A DNA stretch of 62,841 nucleotides from a virus (IMGVR_UViG_3300045973_000170:1-62841), one strand, 5' to 3'; positions 38,640 to 59,035 are shown, counted from the first letter of the stretch. Numbers and translations: made by a program. Notes: a model not told the origin generated them from the letters alone.

Positions 38640-38960
38640 CTAAACGAGAACTTCTTGGCATCCAGTAACAAATAAAGGATGCCAAGAAGGGTTGCCCATT
38701 CTGTTTCCAAGAGGGCGATTCTCAGTCTTTACGCCGCAACGAGTGCGTTCATGAAAGACAGGGCATTATAGTTGTTGCCCGTTAAAGTTTTGCTAGGGCT
38801 TACGGCCCTTCGCCTTTTCGGATAGCGTCTTCAGTCTACTTAGCAACCAATCGAAACCATGACGCCCCCAAAGTACTGCGGCCCTGCTAGTGGAGGCGGG
38901 GGGATTCGAACCCCCGTCTTGTCTGCTTTTCCCTTCAGCATTGTACTATCATCCTGCACT
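38640..38960 (-). ncRNA. ssrA: tmRNA, circularly permuted (two-piece) gene
   Basis: Acceptor piece first (T-arm GGGGG-TTCGAAT-CCCCC, CGCCTCC-A ending 38891), then a 21-nt intervening segment, then the coding piece starting GGGGGCG at 38869. 7-bp acceptor stem with G3-U70; tag ORF 38779-38729 GNNYNALSFMNALVAA*. Outer ends approximate. Confidence 0.92.
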
Positions 38961-57478: not shown

Positions 57479-57547
57479 TGAAGCCCCCTGAGAGTATGCC
57501 TAAACATATCTCAGGGGGCTTCTCCCGTCAATCAGGGAATCCCTGAA

Positions 57548-57982
57548 CTACAGGAAGCGGCTGATGCTCTTGAAAGTGCTGGCGTTGACGTAATCCTCAT
57601 CCGTCATCTTCAGCATACGGAGCGCGTTCTCAATCTCCGTAATCTGGCTGTCGGGGTTGCCGAAGCGAGGATACTCGAAATCCGGCTTGGGCTGTTCCGG
57701 CACCGCTGACTTCTTGAGGAAGAACGTCAGTTCCACCTTGATCTGACCACGGGGAACCCCGTAGCAATCGGAGTGGGTGGCAACTTCCGAAGCGTCAGCG
57801 TTGTCGGAAATCAGGGTGGTAACCTGCTTGCGCCACTCCACCATCGCCTTCTCATGCGCCTTCTGCTTCTTGGGGATATCCTTGAATTCCTTGACCTTCG
57901 CCTCAAGCGAGGCAATGATCTTCGCCACCGGAACCCGAATGTTGATGCTCGCCACGGTCACGCTCCATGAGTGAGTGTACAC
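57548..57982 (-). CDS. Hypothetical protein (likely GTG start at about 57955)
   Basis: Coherent ORF between two cassettes. Confidence 0.65.
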   Translation of the reverse strand: MYTHSWSVTVASINIRVPVAKIIASLEAKVKEFKDIPKKQKAHEKAMVEWRKQVTTLISDNADASEVATHSDCYGVPRGQIKVELTFFLKKSAVPEQPKPDFEYPRFGNPDSQITEIENALRMLKMTDEDYVNASTFKSISRFL

Positions 57983-58034
57983 CTAATGATAATCATGTCT
58001 CATGGGGCTGTACAGTCGGGGAATCCCTGAAATG

Positions 58035-58367
58035 ATAATGCCCCCCACTCCGTCGAGTGAGAGGCATTCCCATGAGAGTTTGCGCTGGTTATATGTCGGC
58101 TTATCTAGTTTGCCGATTCTACACCTGATCATGGTTCAACTAGTCCCATGAAACGTAGGCTGTGTACCCGCCAACTCTCACTGGTGTTGTCCCTGACGTA
58201 ACCAAGATGTTGTAACATGAGGGTAGGGATCGTTCAGCTATGTAATGCGGGAGGGCTGATTACCTAGGAATCATGCCAACGCGCAACAGGGAAAGTGATA
58301 CAGGATTTGCCGCACAGAGGGAACGAACAGAGCTTGTACTTTCAAAGAGTCCAGCACCAGCTTTATG
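58035..58367 (-). ncRNA. Candidate structured non-coding RNA (about 330 nt), family unknown
   Basis: Has its own promoter (CTGACA-17-TAAACT), no ORF of 60 aa or more, nested helices, two 11-nt loops with complementary CTAGTT/AACTAG, and a terminal G-U-containing hairpin. Confidence 0.55.
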
Positions 58368-58418
58368 TAATGTAGTTTAGCGCATGGTCAGTCTCCTGTC
58401 AGTCAGGCTTTCCCTGAA

Positions 58419-58610
58419 CTAGAGTGGCGTTTCCGATTCGACCAATCTGCCAGTGTAGATGACAATTTGGCCACCGTTGTCGATTTCCACCTGTGCATCC
58501 TGAAGCAGGACACGGAGATTCAGCGGTATTGCCGAAATTGAATAACCTCCCGGCAATCTACCAGCCGCCAGCGCATCCTTGATGATCCTTCGAACGTTGT
58601 CTTTTGTCAT
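58419..58610 (-). CDS. Hypothetical protein
   Basis: 63 aa between two cassettes. Confidence 0.55.
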   Translation of the reverse strand: MTKDNVRRIIKDALAAGRLPGGYSISAIPLNLRVLLQDAQVEIDNGGQIVIYTGRLVESETPL

Positions 58611-58795
58611 GGGAGAAGCTTATCTCAAGGGGTGGCACTGCGTAATCGGGGAATCCCTGAATGTACAATCAGCCCCATGAGAGCGGAAGTCGTGAGACTC
58701 TTCTCAAAGGACTGAAGGGATGGCCCAGAGTTTGTAGCTCCTACCACCGTGAGCATTCAACCTAGCACATGTACCAGACCATGTCAAGGGGTGTG

Positions 58796-59035
58796 TCAGC
58801 GTGACACAATTATGCTCAACGTTTGGGGATTAACCATCAGGCTGGATTGGTACAGTTCTTGCAGTTCCATGGCCTCCCTCTGGCAGTCCATGTGCGAATC
58901 GAACAGTAGGGATTCGTCACATGGCTCCCACGGCTCCCAATCCTCACCACGCTCTTCCACCACTGCCTTGAACAGGCGCACCACTTCGCCACGCACCTTG
59001 GCCAGTGTACTCTTCAGATAGATACGATACTTCAT
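58796..59035 (-). CDS. Hypothetical protein
   Basis: 79 aa with AAGGAGG SD. Confidence 0.65.
   Translation of the reverse strand: MKYRIYLKSTLAKVRGEVVRLFKAVVEERGEDWEPWEPCDESLLFDSHMDCQREAMELQELYQSSLMVNPQTLSIIVSR

Follow-up and report, generated by a model that had tools for sequence, protein, structure and literature searches.

Here we report that a stretch of about 335 nt on the minus strand of a T4-like phage genome contains no ORF, is bounded by PeSL-type promoter cassettes and could be an orphan module from which an early non-coding RNA is made. We put this reading forward tentatively, on the basis of sequence features and predicted folds. The candidate is probably transcribed as non-coding RNA, judging from its promoter and its lack of coding capacity. 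Within the predicted transcript, one hairpin at the 3' end is certain by the folding model, a junction domain of about 110 nt (domain 2) is plausible, and only the 3' 155 nt, which comprise these two elements, look folded.

The window, that is the whole stretch of DNA analyzed, is the first 62.8 kb of G000, a 126.8-kb IMG/VR virus record that is about 75% complete and represents an uncultured T4-like myovirus by its baseplate, tail-tube and hub proteins. Small early genes lie on the minus strand of G000 from about 51 kb to 77 kb, and most of them have a common cassette upstream. This cassette opens with a 15-bp palindrome belonging to the TCAGGGAWWCCCTGA family; a sigma70-type -35 element starts at the next base, and a 17-nt spacer separates it from the -10 element. 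A leader of about 20-25 nt comes next, and then a Shine-Dalgarno site of the GGAG type. About 20 such cassettes, with the palindrome directly 5' of the -35 element, lie between 55 and 77 kb, and GGAG-type Shine-Dalgarno sites precede nearly all genes of G000. In T4-type phages, PeSL cassettes combine strong sigma70-like promoters with terminator stem-loops and flank shuffled modules; their copies recombine, which leads to indels and replacements in hyperplastic regions, and excised PeSL mini-circles of about 400-1400 bp have been described (PMC2839356, PMC4122927).

Two promoter subclasses are apparent among the cassettes in the window from 55 to 62.8 kb and, on the minus strand of G000, up to 77 kb. 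The majority carry TATCAT followed by a conserved TAGGCATAC leader, and the minority, comprising the cassettes at 58417, 58786, 63927, 65914 and 71466 together with a leader in G001, the closest relative, carry TGnGCTAnnnT around the -10 element. These subclasses may represent different temporal classes. The cassette at 58417 is that of the candidate, which has its promoter subclass in common with the cassettes at 63927, 65914 and 71466 and with the G001 leader. The features of the candidate and its surroundings are as follows.

58662-58790, minus strand: unit A, a second ORF-less promoter-to-hairpin unit, with near-consensus TTGACA, a 17-nt spacer and TAGGTT
58419-58610, minus strand: upstream orphan ORF P0002, 63 aa, with a weak codon score of 0.26 bits per codon
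58403-58417, minus strand: 15-bp palindrome, a TCAGGGAAAGCCTGA variant, which heads the candidate's cassette
58374-58402, minus strand: sigma70-type promoter matching the consensus, with -35 CTGACA (58402-58397), a 17-nt spacer and -10 TAAACT (58379-58374)
58187-58367, minus strand: pyrimidine-rich 5' part of the predicted transcript (domain 1)
58073-58180, minus strand: domain 2, a predicted multi-branch fold with a closing helix of 8-9 bp (58180-58173 with 58080-58073)
58129-58151, minus strand: predicted hairpin 1, 6 bp (58151-58146 with 58134-58129; pair probability at least 0.9), with an 11-nt loop containing CUAGUU inside an ACTAGT palindrome
58096-58116, minus strand: predicted hairpin 2, 5 bp (58116-58112 with 58100-58096), with an 11-nt loop containing AACUAG, complementary to loop 1
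58037-58068, minus strand: terminal hairpin, 14 bp (58068-58055 with 58050-58037), with a GACG loop and two G-U pairs
57986-58031, minus strand: next cassette and 3' border of the unit, with palindrome 58030-58016, TGTACA, a 17-nt spacer and TATCAT
57548-57955, minus strand: downstream gene P0001, 135 aa, with its own Shine-Dalgarno site, a GTG start and 0.77 bits per codon

The candidate's cassette (58417-58372) has the best cassette-HMM score of the three in the neighborhood (33 bits), and we infer that transcription starts near 58367. About 335 nt without an ORF separate this promoter from the terminal hairpin, and the next cassette begins five bases after the hairpin. The candidate is therefore flanked by cassettes on both sides (58417-58372 and 58031-57986), and the module measures about 385 bp from cassette to cassette. 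The second of these cassettes drives P0001, distant homologues of which (33-41% identity) adjoin DUF932 genes in other metagenomic phage contigs. On the other side, the sole match of P0002 in a set of 5.8 billion proteins was P0002 itself. This ORF lacks a Shine-Dalgarno site and would be leaderless, as its ATG follows the -10 element at a distance of 6 nt. P0002 may not be a real gene, and the whole stretch 58032-58795 may be non-coding.

Several lines of analysis addressed coding capacity. With both strands searched, no ORF of 60 aa or more was found in the candidate and the longest stop-to-stop frames reach 50-52 aa; reading of the sequence revealed no Shine-Dalgarno site combined with a start codon. 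Log-odds of codon usage, from a model trained with 24 early genes, were negative in all six frames of 57975-58400, compared with +0.1 to +0.8 bits per codon for the flanking genes. The eight longest frames had no match in Pfam or PHROGs, and tblastx of the candidate against relatives returned no match. Hence none of the marks by which a small gene was to be recognized, namely a start codon with a Shine-Dalgarno site, coding-type codons or homologues, is present. The promoter CTGACA-17-TAAACT and the absence of an ORF of at least 60 aa, both put forward in a preliminary description of this locus, thus stand. A pseudogene or inverted gene fragment was also considered, as the pyrimidine-rich 5' half is antisense-like, but was rejected because the plus-strand frames carry no coding signal.

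The terminal hairpin has a z-score of -6.4, far from chance. Folded as minus-strand RNA it reaches -25.4 kcal/mol, compared with -14.9 kcal/mol for the plus strand, and this gap of 10.5 kcal/mol agrees with the earlier claim that the GACG hairpin relies on G-U pairs and is specific to one strand. The asymmetry argues for a role in RNA rather than in DNA. A strong hairpin directly upstream of the palindrome occurs at 2 of 23 cassettes, namely here and at 58660, where it belongs to unit A. Like Rho-independent terminators, the candidate's hairpin has a G+C-rich stem that forms well only on the transcribed strand, with an A/U-rich tail after it; unlike them, its stem is long (14 bp) and only 4 of the 8 bases after it are T. 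A simple terminator scan, which required a U-tract with at least 5 T in 8, called no terminator at the candidate's 3' end for this reason. We consider the hairpin a likely terminator or 3'-end stabilizer.

Unit A lies 250 nt upstream of the candidate and has a body of about 90 nt with a fold z-score of -2.35. Its hairpin before the palindrome is predicted at -22.3 kcal/mol and includes G-U pairs, and its 3' end is like that of the candidate, with a similar AU-rich tail and an identical 16-nt variant of the palindrome. Unit A could represent a small RNA gene or a terminator module that was duplicated.

The remainder of the predicted transcript is less uniform in its folding. As a whole, the 339-nt unit has a z-score of -1.6 to -1.9, compared with a mean of -1.3 (sd 1.4) for 340-nt windows of the early region, and a third of these ordinary windows reach -1.9 or lower; the stability of the whole unit is indistinguishable from that of ordinary coding DNA of this phage. 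Domain 1 (185 nt) has a z-score of +0.39 and no structure above chance. The complementary 6-mers CTGGTG and CACCAG, which the preliminary description had taken to close this domain, do exist but pair with a probability of only about 0.1. The 5' part consists of 57.6% pyrimidines against a background of 47.2 +/- 4.3% and contains four UCCC motifs.

By comparison, the multi-branch fold of domain 2 was found in both the MFE and the centroid structures, with pair probabilities of 0.59-1.0, and in the full-length ensemble its closing helix and both hairpins with 11-nt loops have pair probabilities of 0.86-1.0, in support of the helix and hairpins originally proposed at these positions. Its z-score is -3.26 (58068-58186), which 1 of 200 shuffles equalled; 7% of arbitrary 119-nt windows of the early region also reach this value, largely because the region is full of palindromes, and the boundaries of the domain 2 window were picked post hoc. 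The two loops, already noted for their complementary CTAGTT and AACTAG, can form six Watson-Crick pairs with a duplex energy of -6.2 kcal/mol, and 0.45-0.8% of shuffled or random loop pairs reach six, which places a match of this kind at about 0.5-1% by chance. The proposal of a structured RNA of about 330 nt with two domains is therefore only partly supported: the 3' 155 nt look folded, the 5' 185 nt fold at chance level, and the unit as a whole is at background.

In purine riboswitches and hammerhead ribozymes, two hairpins under one helix dock via loop-loop contacts. The predicted architecture of domain 2 is similar to such junction aptamers and ribozymes in that a closing helix encloses two hairpins with complementary loops. 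In contrast to them, the loops of domain 2 measure 11 nt, there is an extra 3-bp mini-hairpin as well as an outer helix around hairpin 2, no conserved core motifs were seen, and no Rfam model matched at E-values up to 10. Domain 2 does not belong to families of the purine riboswitch or hammerhead type.

The loop-loop complement rests on CTAG, a tetranucleotide that is avoided about 3.5-fold in G000 (140 copies, or 1.1 per kb; base composition predicts about 490 and a Markov model about 193). This scarcity suggests restriction avoidance or other counter-selection. Three CTAG copies lie within 160 nt in the candidate, and the sole CCTAGG of the 127-kb genome is found at 58263 in its 5' part. Local G+C is 0.49, compared with about 0.54, and this lower value, together with the CTAG enrichment, could mark recently acquired, unselected DNA.

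The candidate does not resemble known RNA families. Using the 4227 models of Rfam 15, with membership defined as a score at or above the gathering threshold, the only match in the window was a permuted tmRNA gene at 38729-38950. Permissive scans of 57500-59000 and of 58020-58380 (361 nt), with E-values up to 10, returned noise with E-values of at least 0.97 and scores far below gathering. ARAGORN found no tRNA or tmRNA in 57900-58900 in its standard mode; its relaxed mitochondrial mode was uninformative, with 9 calls in 1 kb. The preliminary description had not recognized the element as tRNA, RNase P, SRP, 6S or an intron and had proposed an Rfam scan, and the scans now run likewise yield no family, tRNA or tmRNA at this locus. 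A tRNA-like element was accordingly rejected.

Homologue searches were similarly negative. With blastn, 57500-58700 had no homologue among 50,697 phage and 72,556 plasmid records, and the only matches in the phage's own genome were the promoter repeats and one 15-mer shared by chance with a gene at about 90.1 kb. Locus searches based on both flanking proteins and on the DUF932 neighbor found no homologue of the candidate. Scans with the cassette pattern across IMG/VR and a metagenome collection retrieved G001, a 27-kb fragment (G002) and three short contigs, none of which contains the candidate body, and the body was equally absent from 17 metagenome cassette hits. The body had no match in G001, G002 or five contigs that carry P0001 homologues when these were searched with blastn, nhmmer, Smith-Waterman and tblastx; five more distant T4-like records contained only an 18/20 chance match inside a gene, and a scan of IMG/VR for the loop motif found no homologue. 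A single-sequence covariance model of domain 2 and the terminal hairpin found only itself. With filters off, this model gave an alignment of 10.4 bits at the 3' end of the leader in G001, covering the closing helix, a GGG linker and the GACG-loop hairpin; because two unrelated sites within 5 kb scored higher, we rejected this match as homology. In a MAFFT alignment of the candidate with the G001 and G002 leaders, the promoter alone aligns. In a duplex test, the UCCC-rich 5' half reached -27.0 against the phage's own leaders, compared with -27.7 +/- 1.2 for shuffles, and an anti-Shine-Dalgarno regulator of these leaders was therefore rejected as an explanation.

The closest relative, G001, is a 168-kb IMG/VR record, to which the 27-kb fragment G002 and short metagenome contigs can be added. 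G001 shares the cassette with G000, and the structural proteins of the two phages are 65-87% identical; in a conserved tail protein, identity to the next relatives drops to only about 50%. A block of about 7 kb of small early genes (57.2-64.4 kb) shares no protein match with G001, and its flanks are syntenic. This block is a classic hyperplastic region in which the modules have been replaced completely. No ORF from 57.2 to 63.2 kb had a tblastn match in G001, which places the candidate in the part of the genome where replacement has been most thorough.

G001 does carry a leader behind the same promoter subtype (L006:2666-3050), an ORF-poor stretch of about 340 nt located about 2 kb upstream of a shared gene. 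This leader ends in a GACG-loop hairpin of 14-16 bp with a U-rich tail, about 35 nt before the Shine-Dalgarno site of a 69-aa gene, and no promoter lies between the hairpin and the Shine-Dalgarno site or ATG of that gene. The leader and the candidate are unrelated in sequence (local alignment score 19, compared with 18 +/- 2 for shuffles), and the leader has a fold z-score of -0.8. The corresponding leader in G002 (L030:3590-4012) differs from that of G001 by insertions of about 17 and 21 nt.

If the candidate is a non-coding RNA module, host RNA polymerase would start near 58367 and produce a non-coding RNA of about 335 nt. The 14-bp hairpin (58068-58037) with its AU/U-rich tail would stop or attenuate transcription and protect the 3' end, and the stop would fall just before the next gene's own promoter. 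The 3' 155 nt would be compact, made up of the closing helix, the two hairpins with kissing-capable 11-nt loops and the terminal hairpin, and the 5' 180 nt, pyrimidine-rich and unstructured with four UCCC motifs, could provide an interaction surface if the RNA acts in trans. That such an RNA is maintained is supported by the intact promoter cassette, one of about 20, the others of which each drive a gene, by the minus-strand-specific hairpin, by the improbable loop-loop complement and by the occurrence of strong hairpins before the palindrome at just 2 of 23 cassettes. It is opposed by the lack of a homologue in the collections searched, the absence of the candidate sequence from G001 and the ordinary fold of the whole unit; in addition, the tail is not a canonical U-tract and the leader duplex test gave no signal.

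A functionless spacer is nearly as likely as a non-coding RNA module. The stretch would then be debris or recent DNA, or a decayed or replaced module, left between cassettes after PeSL recombination; its RNA may be made but remain idle, and the hairpin would be the stem-loop or terminator part of the next cassette. Such an origin would suit a location in the block of about 7 kb without homologues in the closest relative, the most actively shuffled part of the genome, next to P0002, which is also an orphan with a weak coding signal, and near an inverted half-cassette (58644-58681) that shows local rearrangement. The reduced G+C and enriched CTAG are as expected of DNA not yet adapted, the fold stability of the whole unit is at background, and the ORF-poor leader that follows the same promoter subtype in G001, about 340 nt long, is unrelated in sequence. 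However, the promoter and the strand-specific G-U hairpin are intact and the kissing-loop complement is improbable by chance, which is harder to reconcile with a spacer. The cassette HMM matches nothing in the body beyond the candidate's own promoter, so that the body is not cassette debris, and the absence of a residual coding signal on either strand means that it is not a young pseudogene either. Phage genomes are, moreover, under strong deletion pressure, which we count against a functionless spacer.

Two further readings were weighed. It is improbable, in our estimate, that the stretch is a cis-acting leader, that is a long 5' UTR of P0001 in which the hairpin serves as an attenuator and domain 2 as a riboswitch- or put-like sensor or antitermination element. 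The order of promoter, long leader, strong hairpin with U-containing tail and gene is also seen in G001, the cassette at 71466 of G000 has a leader of about 110 nt, and the layout of domain 2 brings to mind some aptamers. Yet a complete cassette belonging to P0001 separates the hairpin from the start codon of this gene, which can hence do without the upstream unit; Rfam riboswitch and leader families gave no match even at E-values up to 10, and the sequence is not conserved across relatives. We give very little credence to the idea that the stretch encodes one or more very small proteins of less than 50 aa or acts at the DNA level, for instance as an origin or a recombination site. Minus-strand frames of 49-50 aa (57983-58135) and 29 aa (58129-58218) are present, but no Shine-Dalgarno site precedes any start, codon scores do not exceed 0.08, no homologues were found, and the 49-aa frame runs across the hairpin, the palindrome and the next promoter. 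The flanking cassette palindromes could be recombination substrates (PMC2839356), but a repeat search found no iterons in the body, no AT-rich unwinding tract was seen, and the strand asymmetry of the hairpin favors an RNA role. Returning to the non-coding RNA module, a more specific form of it appears unlikely, namely that the 3' 155 nt are a functional, lineage-specific RNA fold with a junction locked by the CTAG kissing loop, expressed early from a mobile cassette and forming, together with unit A, a small RNA-only island within the hyperplastic region.

The candidate shares several properties with PeSL modules. It lies between repeated copies of a sigma70-type promoter and palindrome among small early genes, its length of about 385 bp is close to mini-circle modules of about 400-700 bp, and it is part of a block wholly different from the closest relative. 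Unlike the described modules, which carry ORFs (PMC2839356, PMC4122927), the candidate has none, and its stem-loop element is a 15-bp palindrome abutting the -35 element, in addition to a separate and much stronger hairpin. Thus, among the traits of a PeSL module, the flanking cassettes and the variable region are present and the ORF content is absent. Stand-alone ncRNAs are few in lytic phages and mostly of uncharacterized function (PMC8244752, PMC10884466). The candidate is like these in being ORF-less, in having a promoter of its own and in its 3' hairpin and structured 3' part, and other RNA genes are present in this phage. It differs from tmRNA and GOLLD in that no homologues were found in the collections searched, and so it cannot be called a family. 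In T4-type phages, genes are shuffled by mobile promoter cassettes, and we know of no regulatory RNA among the cargo described for them. If real, the candidate would be a new lineage-specific phage ncRNA, the distinctive trait of which is that an RNA is the cargo of a mobile promoter cassette.

Both of the leading readings bear on how such regions are interpreted. A functional RNA would offer a compact, testable example of a regulatory RNA of a lytic phage that is also cassette cargo, and if the 3' fold is functional, ncRNAs would be cargo of PeSL-type modular shuffling in addition to ORFs. If the stretch is instead a spacer, cassette-mediated shuffling leaves behind transcribed, ORF-less debris, and the case becomes a caution for ncRNA prediction, as palindromes and hairpins in hyperplastic regions give ordinary DNA strongly negative folding z-scores.

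Three further observations were made among the cassettes of this phage. At the cassette at 57546, the spacer and leader (57480-57522, minus strand) form a perfect 14-bp inverted repeat with the -10 element in its loop. The 119-nt window over this hairpin has a z-score of -5.15. In read-through RNA the predicted hairpin would bury the G-rich ribosome-binding stretch of a 94-aa gene, and RNA begun at the cassette's own promoter would leave this stretch free. The inverted half-cassette on the plus strand at 58644-58681 consists of a palindrome (58646-58660) followed by a cassette-like -35 element and spacer (HMM E-value 4e-4). The cassette palindromes are direct as well as inverted repeats and could therefore mediate inversions besides deletions. 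Finally, a 90-nt stretch beyond the window, at 77214-77303 on the minus strand of G000 and directly upstream of the cassette at 77192, matches tRNA in Rfam (40.3 bits). This tRNA sits in a gap of the early region far from the main tRNA island, with a T-arm-like sequence about 150 nt upstream, and its presence in another early-region gap indicates that RNA genes do occur among the cassettes of this phage.
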